From Promethearchaeota archaeon (GTDB lineage: Archaea; Asgardarchaeota; Thorarchaeia; Thorarchaeales; Thorarchaeaceae), in contig WJMJ01000078.1 of assembly GCA_014728035.1 (NCBI GenBank), forward strand, positions 145,036 to 209,035: DNA of 64,000 nucleotides, given 5' to 3'. This document shows positions 54,478-64,000 of this stretch, piece after piece. Position numbers and translations under genes: made by a program. Each line of letters begins with the position of its first letter. Position 1 is the stretch's first letter. The notes below the pieces were generated by a model that saw only the letters and a program-made list of their open reading frames with translations, was not told the origin of the DNA and did no database searches.

Positions 54478-56571
54478 TTATGCGTCACCACGATTAAGAA
54501 TTGCTGTACTACCCGATCCAGATTTTCTGATTTCGATTGTAGGTACGCCACTCCAATCTTGCACATCAGTGTGAGTGATTAAGAGAATTTGATCGAAGCT
54601 TTGATCGTTTTCCAAGCTAGACACTACTGAATGGCGTCTGTCTTTATCGAGTCCACCAAGGGGTTCATCCAACATAACACACCTAACTCGAGGAGATACT
54701 GCAGGACTCTCTTTTAACGGACGAATTCTACTCATTGTTTTACTGATTCCGAGTCGTAATCCAAGACTTACTGCAGTACGATCACCATAACTTAGCTGCA
54801 ATGTTTTCTTGCTTGCTTTATCGCGTTCATCCCAAATCTTCAAAGCAAGACCCGCCCCAGACCGACCAGTTGCAGGTGTTGAATCTAAATCAATACTGGT
54901 ATATTGGTCATTCGTGAAAGCACGAACATACGGGTTTGTGGCCCCTCGGATAATACCAATCAGTCTCTTTTGGACCGCATAGTCGGCAATGAACCCATTA
55001 ACTAACTTTCTTCTGACATATTTTGTATGTGCTAGAAGTTGTTTCAATGATTCAATCTCAGCGCCAAGTTTCTCCATACGAATGATTTCTTCTTTCAGTT
55101 CTTCAATTCTAGAATATTCCTGTTCGATATTTTCACTGATTGAGTCACAATCATCCTTGGCTGATTTCAATGTAGTACTTAGTACAGCAATTTTTTGATC
55201 CAAATCGGATATGCTCTTAGCTCCATGCTTTTCAAGTAGAGCCTCGACACTTTCTATACCTAATTTTTTGCATAATTCCGAGAATTCCTTTCTCGTTGCT
55301 TCTAGTTTATCTTTCAATCCTTCTATTTCTTCATCTTGCTGCTTAACCCTACTTACAGCATCGAGTGCTTTATTTGATACACGAAGGCGCTGGTCAATAT
55401 CTTGAATCTCAGACTTGATTTCAGTTCTTTCTTCATTAAGCCCCTTGATCTTCTCAATACCTACTTCGATTGTTTCCGAGTATTCCCTCACAATTCTAGT
55501 TCTTTCCTCAGGAGAGAGGGGATTGGAACAAGTAGGACACTCTGTAGATTCAGGATTAGTCTTAGCAGCTTCCCTAAGTGTTCTAATTTTCCGTTTAAGG
55601 TCGCTTTCCTTACCTTTAACAGCACCAATCTCAAAATCTATTTCTGAAAGTTTCTTCTGTTTCTCTTCTTTTTCATCTTCATCTTTCTTGATGCGTTTTT
55701 CAAGAGACCGTAGCCGAGCATCGATTACTTTAGAGTCCGCATCGGGAATTCCCGCAGATTCTAAATCTTTGTTCCGTCTTTGTTTACTCTGTTCGTAATC
55801 ACGTTCCAATCGATCTATCTTTTTAACTACCTCAGATACAGAAGACAAATCCGAAGATTTGGGCAAGGATTTGAGAAGCTTCTCAGTCTTCTTTATTTCT
55901 GCAGTACGTTCTTTTAGACGTTCTTGAGATTTCTTTACTCGTGATGTGGCTAGGTCGATTTCCTTCTCGATTCGTTCTGGATTTGTATAATCAGATTCCA
56001 ACGCTTTGATTCGGATGTCCAAATCCTTCTCTAATCCAGATAGTTGACCGGTCATCTGGTCTAATAATTCAATATTGTAGACCTTCACAATGAGATTTCT
56101 TAAAGTGGTTGGGGTGGCATTAGCAATCTCCGCAACTTCACCTTGATTGACCATCAAAGTACTCTCAGCTTGTTTTCGATCAATATTGAGGATGTCTTCC
56201 ATTGTATCGGAAACTGTTTGACTCTTATCTGCAATTCTTTTCCATGAGTTTTTCTTACGAATATATAGTACAACAGACATCCCATTAGCTGGGTCATACG
56301 AACGGTCAATCTTGTACCGATTTCCTGCAACCTCAAAGATAAGGATAACCTTACAAAACGAAGAAGAGAAGCTAATGAGTTCTTCATTCTTGAGCTGAAC
56401 TGCACTAGAACCCCATAGTGCCCAAAGAATCGCTTCAAATAATGAAGACTTTCCAGTTGAATTTGGGCCTTTAATGATAACCAGTCCATCAGGAAGATAA
56501 CTTCCATCATCAGGTAATCGAAGACTTCTAAACGGTTTGAAGTTCTGAATCTCGACACTTAGAATCTTCAC
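54478..56571 (-). CDS. rad50: Rad50 ATPase
   Basis: IQNFK, GPNSTGKSS, QGE, Zn hook CPTC, LSYGD, LDEP, ITH. Confidence 0.92.
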   Translation of the reverse strand: MKILSVEIQNFKPFRSLRLPDDGSYLPDGLVIIKGPNSTGKSSLFEAILWALWGSSAVQLKNEELISFSSSFCKVILIFEVAGNRYKIDRSYDPANGMSVVLYIRKKNSWKRIADKSQTVSDTMEDILNIDRKQAESTLMVNQGEVAEIANATPTTLRNLIVKVYNIELLDQMTGQLSGLEKDLDIRIKALESDYTNPERIEKEIDLATSRVKKSQERLKERTAEIKKTEKLLKSLPKSSDLSSVSEVVKKIDRLERDYEQSKQRRNKDLESAGIPDADSKVIDARLRSLEKRIKKDEDEKEEKQKKLSEIDFEIGAVKGKESDLKRKIRTLREAAKTNPESTECPTCSNPLSPEERTRIVREYSETIEVGIEKIKGLNEERTEIKSEIQDIDQRLRVSNKALDAVSRVKQQDEEIEGLKDKLEATRKEFSELCKKLGIESVEALLEKHGAKSISDLDQKIAVLSTTLKSAKDDCDSISENIEQEYSRIEELKEEIIRMEKLGAEIESLKQLLAHTKYVRRKLVNGFIADYAVQKRLIGIIRGATNPYVRAFTNDQYTSIDLDSTPATGRSGAGLALKIWDERDKASKKTLQLSYGDRTAVSLGLRLGISKTMSRIRPLKESPAVSPRVRCVMLDEPLGGLDKDRRHSVVSSLENDQSFDQILLITHTDVQDWSGVPTIEIRKSGSGSTAILNRGDA

Positions 56572-56574
56572 ATT

Positions 56575-57900
56575 TTATTCCTCCTCGGGTAGTGTATCAA
56601 GCGTAAGACGCTCATCGCTCTGACCTGCAGCAATCTTCAATGCTCGTACTGCAATTTTCGTCAGCTCTGTCGGGTCGAATTTCTCATCAATTTCAAGTGT
56701 TTCGAGATATGCACGAAAGTCAGCCTCGGGGTCTTCAATGAGATATTCAGATTCTATCTCTGGATATGCAGGTGACACGAATTCCGTATCACTCTGTTTG
56801 ATTGACCAGACGAGTTGTACAAGATTATATTCCGAATCAGATGCTAGAAGATTAAGCCTCAATGACTCCATAGCCATTCCTAGATCAAGACTACCAAAAC
56901 GAGGAGATTCGCCTTCAAAAACGATACGAACTCTTGCAGCTGTTTTACTGTTCCACTCAGTCTTAACACCTGCTTTTTTCAATAGTGCTTTTATCTTTTC
57001 AATAACGGTATCAACGGTATCATCTGATTCAATCTTAATTCGCTCGTTCAGAACAAGTCGCCTAAAAGTAAGTGTTTTGGGGACCACAATAGGTTCTTTT
57101 CCAGATTCAATCTCAACGAGCAAATATCCTTTCTCATGCTTTACTTCATCAAACCTCCAACGCTCAGGGCATCCTGCATACCATGCCTTCTTGGAATAAG
57201 AATGCTGTTTATGGTCATGACCAAGAGCAATGTAATCATAATCCATACTAAACATTGATGGAAAGAGGGTCCTATCAAGGTCCATCCCATGAGCAACAGC
57301 TACAGATGGACGATTATTGTCTGGTCGTTGATGAGTAGTAATCCAATCATTGAATTCAGCTAACAAGTCGGATGACTCAAGAACGTTGTATTCAACGAAA
57401 GGAAAACAGAATACATCCAAATTATCATAAGAATATTTCAGGGGTTCTTCGTTAGCTAATGCACGCTTGAAGTCGTCTTGGGTTGCCACATCAAGACCTG
57501 GAACAGACATCTCTAACGTGTCAAGTAGGGAAACATTAAGCGAACGCCAAATACCGTGATTACCTTCTAGAATCAAGACTGGAATATTGGTCTTTTCTAT
57601 GAATTCTTTAATTACTCGAATCACAGTCTGTTCCGCCATCGCAGGAGGATGAGTTGGATTATTCTCCCAAGGAGAATTGTAGAGGTCTCCAGAATGAATA
57701 ACTGCATCGACAGGAGGGTCTTCTTTTGCAATCAACTGGAACAATTCTTCAAACCGTTCATAGAAATCATGTTCAAGCAGTCGCGAACGCATCTCTATAC
57801 CCCATACATTGTGCTTGACACCTTGCCTGAATTTGGTTCCAAGATGTGTATCGGATATGTGGACGATTCGTGCAGTCACATTCATAACCTCACAGTTCAT
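56575..57900 (-). CDS. mre11: Mre11 nuclease
   Basis: HISDTHLG, SGDLY, GNHG, AHG, ALGHDH, YAG.PE. Confidence 0.9.
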   Translation of the reverse strand: MNCEVMNVTARIVHISDTHLGTKFRQGVKHNVWGIEMRSRLLEHDFYERFEELFQLIAKEDPPVDAVIHSGDLYNSPWENNPTHPPAMAEQTVIRVIKEFIEKTNIPVLILEGNHGIWRSLNVSLLDTLEMSVPGLDVATQDDFKRALANEEPLKYSYDNLDVFCFPFVEYNVLESSDLLAEFNDWITTHQRPDNNRPSVAVAHGMDLDRTLFPSMFSMDYDYIALGHDHKQHSYSKKAWYAGCPERWRFDEVKHEKGYLLVEIESGKEPIVVPKTLTFRRLVLNERIKIESDDTVDTVIEKIKALLKKAGVKTEWNSKTAARVRIVFEGESPRFGSLDLGMAMESLRLNLLASDSEYNLVQLVWSIKQSDTEFVSPAYPEIESEYLIEDPEADFRAYLETLEIDEKFDPTELTKIAVRALKIAAGQSDERLTLDTLPEEE

Positions 57901-59674
57901 GTTTTACTTTCTTCGTTGAAGACTTGGTCTTGTATCTATCTATATCGCGTTCAAATACATCATCAAAGAGGGGTATTTTGACAGGAAGAGGAAGCTCACG
58001 ATAAGATGCAGTAAGAAGAGCCTCACCTCGAGACATGACTCGAAACTCGTTTTCAAAGCCAGTGATATTGACGCTTGCATTCTCAATACATGCCTTGATT
58101 TCTCGTTCATTTCCCAATCGTAAATTGATCTCTGTGTTCATTTGACTAAGAATCACATTGTCTAGTACACTCACTTGCTGACTTACAACAAGCAAGCCAA
58201 TGTTAAATTTTCGGCCTTGACGAGAAATATCTTTGAATACAGATTGACCACGCATCAAGCGAGGATTTAGAATTGAGGGTGCCTCCTCGACAGTAATCTG
58301 AATAACAGGAAGATTTCGTGGATCTCTAACAGGACTATCATCTGCAACACCACCAGCCCCATAAAATGATCTTGCGCTCGTCTTAATTGTTGAGAAAAAA
58401 GTATTTGGGAGTCTACTTTTTGCCTGTTTCTCAAAGTCACTAAGATTTCCGCTGCTCTTTAGAGCTCTTCTAAGATCAGAGAGTGTACGGGTAACTATTG
58501 TTGTAAGAAGAAATTGTTCCATATCACTCATCAAGCTCGTATTTACAACAAGTACCCGCCCAGATTCCATAGAACGATAAATATCTCCAAGAACAGAATT
58601 TCCTTTTTCTATGAAAATAGGAGACCGTTTTACAAAATTGAGACGACGTTTAACAGCTCGTAGAGTGCCTTTTGTAGTACCAATATCATCATGCTCCTCA
58701 TCCAGAGCAAGAATTGTGTCTATCCAGTTTTCGTGATGAATAGAGTAAACTTGTTCAATGAAAGCGTACATTTCCGAAGAGAACTCCATGATAGAAAACA
58801 AATCCCGAGGCTGAATCTCATTCCAGAGAATTCGGATATCTCGTCCATATCTTCGGATTTCCTTTTGTGTGGCTGACAAGTGAGTAGTAAGGTAATAGAA
58901 ATCACCAATCAGGGATTTACGCGTTTTCGGGTCCATAGACTCGATAATATTCTGAATTCCATAATTGTCCACACCTTTAGCAAATTCATCGTGAGGGTCG
59001 ATACAAAAAGCAGATATTTTTGGATGTTCAGCACCTGGATCTTCTACAGCAGTAAGATTTGTGTCGAGAAGTGATTTAATCAATACCATCATGAGATTGC
59101 TCTTACCTGCACCTGTTGACCCGAATATTCCCACATGCATTCCAAGAAATTTGCTAGGAATCATAATCGGAACATCCAATGTGCCCTCACCAATTTGGAG
59201 GTCTCCTACATACACCTCACCATCAGTCTGACTTCCCAACATTTCTTGGACCACCTCATCAGATGTACCAGCAATTGGGCGGTATACATGAGCTAGATGG
59301 TCAGGTAGTCTTCGTGGAGAACGGAATTTCCATTCATCCCCAATCTTTTCAGCGTAACCGAGCATTTTCCCTCCAACAGATAGGAGCATATTTCGTTCGA
59401 TTCCTGAGAGGTATGCATCCCCTTCAACCATTAGAGTGCCTGCAACACGAGCCATATCATCTACTTGACGAAGATAATTCTCTAGACCAAGTACTCTAAA
59501 GAAGAAGACTCGCTCCTGTCCATCACGTTGCGAGTATATCATGAATATTTCTCCAACACTTACATCTCGGTTATTCCCCATGATGTCAAGCATTGTCTGG
59601 TTTCCTACACCAACACGTCCGTAAAGTTCTCCAAGTGTATCTCTATCAATTCTCATTGGTATTCCTCCTATCAT
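57890..59674 (-). CDS. herA: HerA helicase/ATPase
   Basis: HVGIFGSTGAGKS, DPHDE, EEA, RQGRKF, SQQ, LSQMNT. Confidence 0.9.
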   Translation of the reverse strand: MIGGIPMRIDRDTLGELYGRVGVGNQTMLDIMGNNRDVSVGEIFMIYSQRDGQERVFFFRVLGLENYLRQVDDMARVAGTLMVEGDAYLSGIERNMLLSVGGKMLGYAEKIGDEWKFRSPRRLPDHLAHVYRPIAGTSDEVVQEMLGSQTDGEVYVGDLQIGEGTLDVPIMIPSKFLGMHVGIFGSTGAGKSNLMMVLIKSLLDTNLTAVEDPGAEHPKISAFCIDPHDEFAKGVDNYGIQNIIESMDPKTRKSLIGDFYYLTTHLSATQKEIRRYGRDIRILWNEIQPRDLFSIMEFSSEMYAFIEQVYSIHHENWIDTILALDEEHDDIGTTKGTLRAVKRRLNFVKRSPIFIEKGNSVLGDIYRSMESGRVLVVNTSLMSDMEQFLLTTIVTRTLSDLRRALKSSGNLSDFEKQAKSRLPNTFFSTIKTSARSFYGAGGVADDSPVRDPRNLPVIQITVEEAPSILNPRLMRGQSVFKDISRQGRKFNIGLLVVSQQVSVLDNVILSQMNTEINLRLGNEREIKACIENASVNITGFENEFRVMSRGEALLTASYRELPLPVKIPLFDDVFERDIDRYKTKSSTKKVKHEL

Positions 59675-60963
59675 AAATTATAATCTGCACGATAAGGTTC
59701 AGTCTTTACCGAATCTAATTTCATTTCAATTCTAACATCCCTACATATCTCACGAGCTAATCTCAAGTCTTCATAACCGAGCTTACATTGTTCATGTGCT
59801 AAAGCTAAGGCAACAGGATATCCATACCACCGAGCATCACGCGACATGAATTCAAGCTCTCGAAATAGAGCTTTTTCGTTATTGCGTGTAGCAACTGGAT
59901 CATCCTTGACAAATATCTTCTTCAACCACCATACTCTATCGAAGTCGATGCGAGAAGGACGATTATCACGAGAGAAGCTAAAAAGATATGGAACAGCAAG
60001 GCGTGGGGGAATATAGGTACGGTCTTCATAGATATGCAATCCACCACCGGGGTCGTCACGACAAGGTAGATGACAAAACCACTTTGCCCCATCACCAAAA
60101 ACATCACGTGCCATTTTTGCAATTTTATGGGCAAATGGAATAGTATGATTTTTACTGACAGCACACAAGATGACATTCTCTTTTCTTGCAAGAGATGCAA
60201 GCTCCCTAAGCATGAACCCACTTGGCATAGAGGGGTATTTGTAAACATGATGCATGAAGACTGACATCGCACCATCAAGAAGCAGGTATTTTGGCATAAA
60301 TCTACTTGATAGTATTTGATGTGCTGCCGCATATTCGGATACCTTTCTAATTTCTTCGTGGACAATTGGATTAGTGAGTATCCGTTCACGTGATATTAGA
60401 GATTCCATGTCTTTTAGTTTGGAAATTCGTCGCTCATATTCAGTACCCGAAAAATCAGAGTAACATGAAATCGATCCATTTGAATGATCTTGAAAGAAAG
60501 GTAAAACAAGATTTGCCATATCCTTAACTGGATACACTTCTGCGAGAGTTTCAGCTAATTTCTTTGTAGCATCAAATCGAACACCAGAATGCCAGTGTGT
60601 ATCAAGATGGGGTTGGTCCCCCAATTCTTGTTCAATGAGGTCGGTTCTAACTGGTTGGAATACTTGTTCGGCTTGAGTGTTGGTACTTACAAGAACGCTT
60701 GCTGTGCTGAAAAGATGAACTCTAACATCATCCAATAACATCAGATTATCAGTTCCAGACCCATCAACTGCAGCAACCAGGAAATCCTCATCTAAAACAA
60801 CATCAGCAGGGTAGGGTTCAACAGCAGATAATAACTGAGTTTTTATTCTTTGCTCATCCTTTGCAAATTCTTCTTGGTCACGTTTATCCTGTTGATTTTT
60901 AATATCAGTGAAAAGCAATTTGAGCTTCTTCCTGAACTTATCGGTAAGAATCTTTTCGAGCAT
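59671..60963 (-). CDS. nurA: NurA nuclease
   Basis: AVDGS, LLLDG, AVSK, GYP.AL..AH; first gene of the nurA-herA-mre11-rad50 operon. Confidence 0.87.
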   Translation of the reverse strand: MLEKILTDKFRKKLKLLFTDIKNQQDKRDQEEFAKDEQRIKTQLLSAVEPYPADVVLDEDFLVAAVDGSGTDNLMLLDDVRVHLFSTASVLVSTNTQAEQVFQPVRTDLIEQELGDQPHLDTHWHSGVRFDATKKLAETLAEVYPVKDMANLVLPFFQDHSNGSISCYSDFSGTEYERRISKLKDMESLISRERILTNPIVHEEIRKVSEYAAAHQILSSRFMPKYLLLDGAMSVFMHHVYKYPSMPSGFMLRELASLARKENVILCAVSKNHTIPFAHKIAKMARDVFGDGAKWFCHLPCRDDPGGGLHIYEDRTYIPPRLAVPYLFSFSRDNRPSRIDFDRVWWLKKIFVKDDPVATRNNEKALFRELEFMSRDARWYGYPVALALAHEQCKLGYEDLRLAREICRDVRIEMKLDSVKTEPYRADYNL

Positions 60964-61206: not shown

Positions 61207-61932
61207 TTGTTAAAGATAAAATTCTTGGGACATAGCGCATTCATATTTGAAACCGAAAAGACTTCACTCTTGGTCAATCCAGTTCTAGTCAATGAGGAGC
61301 CTGTAGTTCCTGATGACTTAGATGTGAGACTGATTGCAATAACGAATCACCTAGATGAAACAATAGGAAATGCTGTAGAGATTTCCAATACAGCAAAATC
61401 ATGGATTCTAGGAAATGAACAGACCATTGCAAGAGTAAAAGCTAAAGGTGGAAAACCATGGCTTCTTCATCCATTAAAATACGAGGTTCCGTATGAGATT
61501 CCCGGTCTGAAATTAACTCCATTCCAACTTCATCGTACTATTACAAATGAAGAGGGAGAAACTGAACGAGTTGATAATCTGGGCCTCTACATAGAGATGG
61601 GACAAATGCGAGTTAGTTATCTTGGGGATACTATTGTTCGAGGTGGTTTTGGATCAATGGAAGCTGATGTTCTAATCACACCAGTCGGTAATCAGGGAGT
61701 ATTTCCTGTAAAGGATGCGGTGAGCTTGTGTATTGATCTACAACCAAGGATTGGAATTCCAATGGGATGGTCTAGCAAAGAACAACTCTCAAAGTTTGAC
61801 AAGTATATAGACCAGTTCGGTCAAGGTACTGTTTCAGTGATTATGGTACCGCCACAAGAACTTGATTTACAATGGGCTGCTGGTAATGAGTTCAGATACG
61901 AAATTAGGGATACGTTCATTCAATATCGATGA
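61207..61932 (+). CDS. UPF0173-like MBL-fold protein with degenerate metal site
   Basis: KFLGHSAF, YLGDT, ..PVG, IPM; HxHxDH replaced by TNHLDE. Confidence 0.75.
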   Translation: MLKIKFLGHSAFIFETEKTSLLVNPVLVNEEPVVPDDLDVRLIAITNHLDETIGNAVEISNTAKSWILGNEQTIARVKAKGGKPWLLHPLKYEVPYEIPGLKLTPFQLHRTITNEEGETERVDNLGLYIEMGQMRVSYLGDTIVRGGFGSMEADVLITPVGNQGVFPVKDAVSLCIDLQPRIGIPMGWSSKEQLSKFDKYIDQFGQGTVSVIMVPPQELDLQWAAGNEFRYEIRDTFIQYR

Positions 61933-62595
61933 TACACAGACTCAAGTAGAGAAACTCATGATGCCGAAAAAGGATATACTGATAATGATGAAATATATTT
62001 AGGAAGTATTGGAATCTATAAGGAAGATATGATGAAATCATCTATAGCACCACAGAAGCATGATTCTGAACTATTTAGGAAACTTCTCGAGTAGTACTGT
62101 GCTCGTAAAACATCCATCTGATTCTATTTGATATGATTTTATTGGCATCTTACAAGTATGTTACAGGATGAGATTTGGTAGAATATCAATATCGATGGAG
62201 AAGATATAGAATTCTATCCTGTCGGTCCAGTAGAAGCAATGCCTCAGACACGGTAATCAATATAAGTTGGATGTAGAACGACGATTATTGGATCCTGCAG
62301 ATTCATGAAACAAACGACTGATATTTCGGTGGCTATTATGGAGGGAGTGATATATTGGGTGGGAAGACACAATCTTTGAAGAAGCAAGTTCCTGTGATGA
62401 AGAAGGACATACATCTCCTTCAGTCAGAAAAAATGTGACCGAAATGTTGAGGTCCATTCCAAACAAGGAACTTGAACCCAAACTCAAAAGAGCAATGGTA
62501 GAGGTAATCAAACTTCGATTGGAGGAGATAAAACAATAACAGATGGTGTAGTACAACTTATTAGGAGGCCGGAATCTCAAGGTCATTGGTAGCAA

Positions 62596-62689
62596 GGTGC
62601 ATGGGCTAGTTTTCGTTACATGCCCTCAATTACGAAACTCCCCCTCCTACCACGAATGTCGGCTCCGTCGCCACCTTATCCCTGCACCA
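62596..62689. other. GC-rich structured element (nested stems) at a compositional boundary
   Basis: GGTGCAtGGG (62596-62605) pairs with CCCTGCACC (62680-62688); inner AGTTtTCGT/ACGAAACT stem (62608-62639). Confidence 0.45.
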
Positions 62690-62714
62690 AAATACACGGG
62701 GAATTTGGATAGAC

Positions 62715-63977
62715 TCATCCACAATTGAATGCTTCATGACCAAGACTGCGAAGTGACATGATATCCACCTTCTCTTCGATGAACCGTACCTCCTTGCTGA
62801 TACCTGAATGGTATCTGAAGAAGGCTAGCAGTATCTTCTGAGGTAGATGCAGTAGCTCCTTTCCAATCCTGTACCTGTGAGCAAGATACATACAGGCACA
62901 GGCAAGTATCGTGGACTGGAAATCATTCTCAGGAACAAGCGAATTGATACGCAGAGCCAGACACTCGACCTCTGAGAGATAGTCACTCATCTTGAACTCG
63001 GTCAGCTCATCCAAACTGTCTTTGATTGCGATGATCAACTCACGTGGAGAATCGTCATCATCATCACGAAGAGGGGGAATCTCACTGAACAGAAGACGAT
63101 GGGGCATCCGAAAATGATTTGCAAGTACCTTCTTGGAGAGAGAGCTGTCCAATATCTCCGTGATTCGGTTCTTTGGGGGTCTGAACTTGATAGAGGTATG
63201 GCGTAGGATGCATTCATAGACCAACATCGCTGAGGAATTTGCTAGACTTGGAAACACGCGAACCCCAAAATTATGACTTTTCAATATCTCATGAACACAT
63301 CTTGAGAGCGTCTTGTAATCTAGTCCATCAGGATGGTCATCAAACAGACCGCTCTCTCGAATCAGGGATAGGTGCTGTTCGATGACCGGAAGAAGGTCAG
63401 CCTTGTACTGCTTGTTCCGTTCATAGGTCATGAGGAACCCCCCCACTTCTTCAATGAGCTCAAGTGTCTGTCTGATAATGGACTCTGACTCTGCTCCCGT
63501 GATGGTAAACCCACCAGACCCGAACAGAATAACTGTGACATTGTATCTCCGAATCCGCCACACCATTCCCGGATACTGTTCTGGTTCGTAAACAGTGTTC
63601 TCTAACTCTAGGGATAGGAGTTCCAGATTCAGACTCTTCTCAATCTTACCCGTTGCCACCAAGTTCTGCAGCTCGACATCAGGCATGGAGAGGTGTGACT
63701 CCCTACGGATGAAGTAGAGTGAGTTGTAGTACTTAATGAAGTCTTGAAGCACAGACTCTACTTTTTCAATCTCCACATACAGATTCACAATGAACTTTCC
63801 CGATGCAAAGACAAGTAGGGAGTTCTTGTCGTCCTTGTCTTTCCATCTCATCCCTGGAAACTTTTCAACCTCGAAGGTAGCTCTGGATGGGAATGACGCT
63901 GCTATCTCGTCCAGGTCGATTCGTTTTCTTAAATTCCCAGACCATACCGCATTGACCAACCTGTATTCGATGGTCAT
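62715..63977 (-). CDS. TATA-binding protein (two repeats) fused to a TFB/cyclin-like C-terminal domain
   Basis: Repeat 1 NAVWS..FPG..LVFASGK; repeat 2 NLVAT..YEPEQYPG..ILFGSG..ITGA; C-half SPRELI...LD and LACACMYLAHR; SD GGAGGGG before ATG 63977 (frame open to the edge). Confidence 0.8.
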   Translation of the reverse strand: MTIEYRLVNAVWSGNLRKRIDLDEIAASFPSRATFEVEKFPGMRWKDKDDKNSLLVFASGKFIVNLYVEIEKVESVLQDFIKYYNSLYFIRRESHLSMPDVELQNLVATGKIEKSLNLELLSLELENTVYEPEQYPGMVWRIRRYNVTVILFGSGGFTITGAESESIIRQTLELIEEVGGFLMTYERNKQYKADLLPVIEQHLSLIRESGLFDDHPDGLDYKTLSRCVHEILKSHNFGVRVFPSLANSSAMLVYECILRHTSIKFRPPKNRITEILDSSLSKKVLANHFRMPHRLLFSEIPPLRDDDDDSPRELIIAIKDSLDELTEFKMSDYLSEVECLALRINSLVPENDFQSTILACACMYLAHRYRIGKELLHLPQKILLAFFRYHSGISKEVRFIEEKVDIMSLRSLGHEAFNCG

Positions 63978-64000
63978 TTGGCCCCCTCCCACTGCCACTC

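Follow-up and report, generated by a model that had tools for sequence, protein, structure and literature searches.

Known TBP and TFB systems and the locus in comparison

In known complexes of the TATA-binding protein (TBP), the acidic stirrup of the second TBP repeat contacts TFB/TFIIB. The core of TFB/TFIIB (PF00382) consists of two five-helix cyclin repeats with a helix-turn-helix (HTH) that reads the TFB-recognition element (BRE), while the Zn ribbon and B-reader of TFB recruit RNA polymerase, and additional copies of TBP and TFB play in archaea the part that alternative sigma factors play in bacteria. In the haloarchaeal TBP/TFB expansions, additional copies of these general factors reprogramme promoter choice (PMC3261711), and Sulfolobus TFB3, a truncated TFB acting in trans, indicates that a partial TFB can function (PMC6101594). 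Here, an open reading frame (ORF) is described that joins a TBP to an all-helical, putatively TFB-core-like half, in a stretch of 64,000 nucleotides from a Promethearchaeota archaeon of the Thorarchaeaceae (assembly GCA_014728035.1, contig WJMJ01000078.1; G000:C44:145036-209035 in our numbering). This whole stretch is referred to as the window, and its right edge is the contig end.

The fused ORF runs on the minus strand from an ATG at 63977 down to a stop codon at its lower end (Table 1) and counts 420 codons without internal stop, as an earlier note on this DNA had described. The interpretation given there, a pre-assembled single-chain TBP-TFB core in foreign DNA, was supported in part. The reading preferred here, to which a probability of about 0.6 is given, is that of a translationally coupled three-gene cassette which would encode an alternative promoter-recognition set and in which one added G has recently joined two of the genes. 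The coupled cassette is of more interest than the fusion itself.

The TBP half shares with archaeal TBPs (PF00352; for example that of Pyrococcus woesei in the TBP-TFBc-DNA complexes 1AIS and 1D3U) the two repeats, three of the four Phe and a second repeat with its EPEQ stirrup, whereas it has diverged in the first repeat, lacks the acidic tail and reads through into another gene. The C-terminal half (C-half) fits the two five-helix repeats of the TFB/TFIIB core in size and helix count, but the fused ORF has neither a Pfam match to that core nor a Zn ribbon or B-reader, and the recognition-helix motif has diverged. As in the haloarchaeal paralogs and TFB3, additional general-factor copies are concerned; here, in contrast, the TBP and the putative TFB-like pieces form one translationally coupled cassette on a strain-specific island, and the TFB-like protein is apparently divided, with the TBP gene between its parts. 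The engineered Brf1-TBP chains of RNA polymerase III (Pol III) pre-initiation complexes (PDB 6cnb, 6eu0 and 6f40), which were among our sequence and fold matches, likewise combine a TFIIB-family core with a TBP in one polypeptide. Those chains are laboratory constructs with designed linkers, while the present one would come from a natural one-base frameshift with a junction of 2-3 residues and has the opposite domain order.

A divergent TBP paralog

The N-terminal half proved to be the complete two-repeat TBP that the earlier note had seen in it. The PF00352 match spans residues 6-177 in two stretches with 109.6 bits against a cut-off of 22.9, and alignment with 23 canonical Asgard TBPs confirmed three Phe and one Tyr at the DNA-kinking, intercalating positions: F (EKFPG), F (VFASGK), Y (EQYPG) and F (LFGSG). 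The same positions read F, F, Y, F in the TBP of a second cassette copy on contig C113 and Y, F, L, F in an outgroup TBP, P0007, both of which are described below.

Identity to the canonical Asgard TBPs was 36-41%. Repeat 2 is near canonical and keeps the EPEQ stirrup. In repeat 1, the TGAKS motif is gone and seven residues are inserted, and the protein lacks the acidic C-terminal tail. All ten NCBIfam TBP models (the PRK00394 set) stayed below their cut-offs, the best with 114 bits against 181. The canonical TBP of this genome is encoded on contig C115, and the window TBP is, by its sequence, a divergent paralog of it. The closest TBPs carry Thorarchaeota names; no relatives of this TBP clade were found among metagenome and viral contigs.

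Origin of the fusion

The evidence on the origin of the fused frame comes from a second copy of the cassette on C113, a 13-kb contig of the same assembly. Its TBP (182 aa, 86% identical) and its counterpart of the C-half (235 aa, 57% identical) are encoded in different frames, the TBP ending in ...EVGGSS and its TGA overlapping, as ATGA, with the start codon of the gene that follows. The run of seven G, located at the positions given in the earlier note, corresponds on C113 to a run of six (G6) with identical flanks, and over the 669 nt aligned across the junction the two copies are 91% identical with a single gap. In the window, the former TBP stop (TGA at 63428-63430) is now out of frame, the linker between the halves consists only of "FL" and the old start Met, and a purine-rich stretch resembling a Shine-Dalgarno sequence still precedes the internal ATG.

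The outgroup TBP P0007 (locus L077, from a Logan assembly of another metagenome) is likewise a stand-alone protein of 182 aa, 64% identical to the window TBP with a synonymous divergence (dS) of about 1.2-1.3. It has a CxxC ORF upstream with an ATGA overlap and is followed, again through ATGA, by an unrelated 90-aa ORF. Since the genes are split and ATGA-coupled both on C113 and at L077, the ancestral state would be that of separate coupled genes, and the fusion one inserted G. Homologues with two separate ORFs were named in the earlier note as grounds for giving up its single-chain reading, and these two loci provide them; an evolved single-chain factor is accordingly not supported. Apart from the present ORF, the TBP ORFs seen in 86 family genomes did not exceed about 320 aa, and a collection of 5.8 billion proteins yielded no fused relative in the range of 231-735 aa, so that the same fused architecture in independent genomes, the mark of a conserved (Rosetta-stone) fusion, was not found in these searches.

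The divergence between the window and C113 copies is mosaic: about 380 nt at the junction are about 96% identical, while the flanks reach 84% and 55% (window 63065-63700 against L022:11900-12270). In terms of dS, the values were 0.47 for TBP repeat 1, 0.11 for repeat 2, 0.14 for the first 36 codons of the C-half and saturated in the remaining C-half. The low dS around the junction against the higher values in the flanks suggests that the junction was homogenised recently, probably by gene conversion between the copies. Omega between window and paralog was 0.09-0.27 in all parts of the ORF, and both halves are consequently genuine coding sequence. The fusion is thus best read as a very young single-base event, less likely as a consensus error, and not as a conserved architecture.

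Sequence and predicted fold of the C-half

The C-half had no Pfam or NCBIfam match even at E 10, and its relatives were found only within the same assembly when genome, viral and metagenome contigs were searched: two full copies, a fragment of 83-93 aa on contig C82 and a decayed 3' remnant on contig C130. For the three cassette proteins, neither PADLOC nor PHROGs returned a match. Residues 183-420 contain no Cys pairs, and the absence of a Zn ribbon reported earlier holds for the fused ORF; for the cassette on C113 it does not, as the gene upstream of the TBP there supplies a TFB-like ribbon.

When the C-half was aligned by hhalign with the six TFBs of the genome, C-half positions 78-184 fell on TFB 186-282 over 94 columns, colinear over both TFB repeats, with a nominal P of 0.009 and a probability of 4.5%. 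The weak matches involve helices 3-5 in the first repeat and helices 1 and 3 in the second, in order, and the TFB resemblances that the earlier note had picked out by eye were recovered in the same order, although with this weak score. In a block-permutation null the score was reached by 2 of 150 permutations and the 94 columns by none, and among 222 sampled ORFs the TFBs ranked 2, 5, 20, 21, 48, 49 and 69. The sole PDB sequence match was cyclin L1 (E 5.4), at the helix-3 motif. A test for an internal repeat, one half of the C-half against the other, was not significant.

The earlier note expected a cyclin/TFIIB fold for residues 183-420. The AlphaFold2 model of this whole region, built on a 3-row alignment, gave 11 helices but was unfolded, with a predicted local distance difference test score (pLDDT) of 39.7; none of its 50 best matches in the VIA search was a cyclin fold, and Foldseek likewise returned a heterogeneous mix of helical proteins. 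The last 116 residues alone leaned towards the cyclin fold. Their model was made template-free from three orphan sequences, with no TFB or cyclin sequence in the input, and shows five helices plus one (pLDDT 48.5; predicted template modelling score 0.35). Against 48,161 PDB representatives, 25 of its 50 best VIA matches were cyclin-fold proteins with Z scores of 4.7-5.8, including Orc6, cyclins A, B1, D3, F and H, Trypanosoma brucei TFIIB (Z 5.2), human TFIIB (Z 4.7), the Rb pocket, p25 and viral cyclins. In a second-look fold search the top 29 rows were all cyclin-fold chains, Brf1 in Pol III complexes among them, and the best Foldseek rows were p25, cyclin D1 and cyclin A.

The argument for a cyclin fold comes from this enrichment for one fold class and not from any single score. 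A cyclin-box topology of residues 305-420 is accordingly predicted with moderate confidence. It is likely that the C-half as a whole is a double cyclin box of the TFB type; the model covers the second box, and the first is proposed from the helix pattern and the weak alignment. The cyclin/TFB-like nature claimed for the C-half is thus moderately supported, by the fold enrichment, the colinear TFB similarity and a Zn-ribbon operon partner, while a Pfam or NCBIfam match to TFIIB was not obtained.

Two other candidates for TFB-like proteins were encountered. A 261-aa ORF of another genus of the family (G030:C1; L021:1363-2148, minus strand), which has no Zn ribbon, matched TFB helices 3'-5' in hhalign at P 0.0045 and the same helices of the C-half at P 0.003; it may be another ribbon-less TFB-like protein, the resemblance being faint. 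ORFs of 313-316 aa in genus g12, which had given a weak match, proved not to be TFBs.

The proposed three-gene cassette

On C113, a 265-aa protein with two CxC...CxxC ribbons is encoded upstream of the TBP, by a gene whose end overlaps the start of the TBP. The C-terminal ribbon aligns to the Zn ribbon of TFB through EWRA (hhalign P 1.5e-4, probability 52%), the motif that opens the B-reader of TFB. Pfam Zn_Ribbon_TF was matched by this ORF at E 0.035, and in a genome-wide search with a hidden Markov model (HMM) of the C113 ribbon the TFBs came at ranks 2, 5 and 7 among 3264 ORFs. Only the end of the corresponding ORF lies within the window, where its TGA overlaps the TBP start as ATGA. A search of 301 genomes of the phylum gave no relative of this upstream ORF. 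These weak but concordant signals suggest a cassette with the order TFB-N-like protein, TBP, TFB-core-like protein.

In the proposed ancestral cassette, the Zn-ribbon protein, the divergent TBP paralog and a helical, probably TFB-core-like protein would be coupled in translation by the ATGA overlaps. The TFB-like factor would then be divided into an N-terminal Zn-ribbon/B-reader protein, which could contact RNA polymerase as the TFB ribbon does, and a core protein; the TBP paralog, with its saddle and TFB-binding stirrup kept, could pair with the core-like protein of the cassette or with host TFBs. Together these proteins could bring the RNA polymerase of the host to promoters specific to the island, or else compete with or titrate host factors, and the island cassette probably encodes such an alternative promoter-recognition set. 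In the window copy, the addition of one G to G6 at the overlap of TBP stop and next start would shift the frame, so that the TBP reads on into the downstream gene. The G7 allele would give no free TBP and instead a tethered TBP-core chain, although free core protein might still be made from the internal start, which is retained together with its purine-rich leader. A bolder version, in which the cassette is a self-contained island-borne initiation system with a TFB split on either side of its own TBP and the G6/G7 tract acts as a slippage-prone switch between separate and tethered TBP-core, is speculative and has little probability.

If the reading is correct, a cassette of Zn-ribbon protein, divergent TBP and cyclin-like core would be an unusual arrangement in which a general factor is split around its partner, and it would offer a compact system for asking how much of TFB needs covalent linkage. 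Extra TBP and TFB copies in Asgard archaea also bear on the diversification of the eukaryotic initiation machinery. The fusion, for its part, illustrates that a single homopolymer slip between overlapping coupled genes can produce a Rosetta-stone fusion, and it calls for caution, since fusions at homopolymers in single assemblies are not to be taken for evolved architectures.

Alternative explanations

Several results weigh against the coupled cassette as set out here. PF00382, the TFIIB cyclin repeat, was unmatched by the C-half in the Pfam search, plain HMM searches between C-half and TFB were not significant in either direction, and an HMM of the TFB cores of this genome ranked the C-halves 303 and 410 of 3264 ORFs. 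Among the 222 ORFs a glycosyltransferase came first by chance at P 2.8e-4, so the calibration of hhalign P values is poor at this depth of alignment. Both AlphaFold models are of low confidence, and all Z scores lie below the caution level of the tool for helical models. The outgroup locus L077 has a different third gene; the core-like protein would therefore not be an obligatory member of the cassette, whose conserved core would be the ribbon protein and the TBP. The two copies could moreover stem from two co-binned strains and not from one cell, the contamination of this metagenome-assembled genome being 8.5%. The C-half might not be TFB-derived but another helical protein, perhaps of generic cyclin fold, that partners or modulates the TBP paralog, such as an inhibitor or the product of an island cargo gene. 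It has no significant sequence match to any family, the fold matches do not separate TFIIB from cyclins, Orc6 and Rb (all Z within 1 unit), and the 90-aa ORF in the same position at L077, of membrane type, suggests a variable slot. The colinear match over both TFB repeats at the expected helices, the cyclin helix-3 motif as sole PDB sequence match and a cassette that also encodes a TBP and a TFB-type Zn ribbon make this alternative somewhat doubtful.

The remaining alternatives concern the fusion. The seventh G could be a consensus error, in which case the true locus has G6 and two genes as on C113, and the 420-aa protein does not exist: homopolymer length is the sole difference at the junction, the gene lies at a contig end beside a 91%-identical repeat, where reads of the two copies could mix, and a single contig among all collections searched carries the fused protein. 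On the other hand, only 2 of 341 long homopolymers in the assembly extend an ORF (at least 100 codons) if edited by one base, one of them being the G6 of C113, compared with 4 of 341 random sites. Homopolymer errors are consequently uncommon in this assembly, all other long ORFs in the window are intact, and an artefact is unlikely. Should the extra G be real, it could be the first step in the decay of a redundant copy, whose fused product would be inactive or harmful and be lost. A heavily degraded copy with several stops on contig C60 and 3' fragments on C82 and C130 indicate that copies of this cassette family do decay; against this, the 420 codons contain no stops or further indels and omega is well below 1, even if it reflects the history before the insertion, and decay appears distinctly improbable. 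An evolved, functional single chain that clamps TATA/BRE as one polypeptide would agree with the open frame, with purifying selection on both halves and with the conserved C-terminal stirrup, and the engineered Brf1-TBP fusion among the PDB matches (6cnb) indicates that such tethering can be built. With split, ATGA-coupled genes in both paralog and outgroup, a junction nearly identical to that of the split copy, no adapted linker and no other fused form in the family genomes or the protein collection, it is hardly credible.

Features of the window

Table 1. Features at and around the fused TBP ORF, with positions in the window
Feature	Position	Strand	Basis
Left end of strain-specific island	61903..64000	.	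Synteny with sister genome stops after MBL-fold gene
Conserved repeated core of 36 nt just downstream of the gene	62620..62655	+	Five close copies in assembly
Stop codon of fused ORF	62715..62717	-	Read from sequence
Second putative cyclin box, residues 305-420, with conserved helix-3 motif and possible HTH	62718..63065	-	AlphaFold model, fold searches
Orphan all-helical C-half, residues 183-420, putative two-repeat cyclin/TFB-core-like	62718..63431	-	Omega 0.15 against paralog; 11 predicted helices; colinear hhalign to TFB, P 0.009
ATG, internal Met183 here, start of separate downstream gene in paralog	63429..63431	-	Sequence, comparison with C113
G7 homopolymer; seventh G brings TBP and downstream gene into one frame	63438..63444	-	Comparison with G6 in C113
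Divergent two-repeat TBP domain, residues 1-177	63447..63977	-	Pfam PF00352 twice, E 6.8e-32; PDB archaeal TBPs, E 5e-28
Upstream ORF, last 8 codons and TGA stop, truncated by contig end	63974..64000	-	Sequence; homologous to end of 265-aa Zn-ribbon ORF of C113 and to L077 upstream ORF

The genomic island and its surroundings

The alignment between the window and a sister genome from the same genus (G001:C1) ends at 61,902, where the sister sequence runs straight into the ortholog of G000:C28:32,523 onward. This break in synteny indicates an insertion of at least 35 kb in the present genome, with the TBP gene at its left border. The cassette has a GC content of 46-50%, in the 98th-99.6th percentile of ORFs, so that absence from a close relative at the same site goes together with deviant composition, as in a genomic island. 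The neighbours of the other cassette copies, an AbiTii, a STAND-TPR NTPase, a Schlafen/AlbA_2 and a HEPN-like protein, are of a kind typical for variable or defence islands. With Pfam, PHROGs and PADLOC, neither an integrase or transposase nor a viral hallmark gene was recognised on C113, C60 and C28, the island being incompletely assembled. The foreign DNA proposed in the earlier note is hence supported in the sense of accessory DNA, a strain-specific island of outlying GC content, while no virus or plasmid was identified.

The 36-nt core downstream of the gene recurs at G000:C44:130979, C130:135988, C5:4314 and C127:3557, and among the five close copies two left and two right flanks occur in each of the four possible pairings. 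The sister genome has the core at three loci with 94-96% conservation, compared with an identity of only about 78% in coding DNA. It is possibly an att-like target of site-specific recombination. A clustered regularly interspaced short palindromic repeat was considered for it and rejected, as there are six solitary matches in the assembly and no array. The RNA fold predicted for the repeat was no better than that of shuffled sequence, and no tRNA or Rfam family was found near the gene.

The other assembled end of the insertion consists of a single ORF of about 9,975 aa and a leucine-rich repeat protein. This giant ORF extends on the minus strand from G000:C28:148 to about 30,075 (L085, L086), with the leucine-rich repeat protein following, and gave no Pfam domain at E 1e-5 in the 4,524 residues scanned.

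Further observations on the cassette copies

On C113, as judged by eye, the TBP start codon is GTG and not ATG, and the end of the upstream ORF seems to hold a short tandem duplication of the ORF/TBP junction (L002:1440-1511). The degraded copy on C60 (L024:4275-5667) comprises a third Zn-ribbon ORF and TBP and lies beside the Schlafen/AlbA_2 and HEPN-like genes; the 338-aa ORF that follows it was rejected as a relative of the C-half, being an unrelated Thr-rich surface-type protein.

The fragment on C82 (L023:860-1141, minus strand) is an intact 93-aa ORF within the RNA polymerase operon, where it is flanked by rpoB and rpoA'. The start of RpoA' is duplicated in its first 27 or so residues (a 78-nt direct repeat of 81% identity, 493 nt apart), and the remainder shares 40% identity with the second of the putative cyclin boxes in the C-half. 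This ORF appears to be a chimera that would be co-transcribed with the polymerase subunits.

In the window itself, a minus-strand gene row at 54478-60963 comprises Rad50-like, Mre11-like (metallophosphoesterase), HerA and probably NurA genes; the row includes a 430-aa ORF that had no Pfam match, and it adjoins the border of the island.

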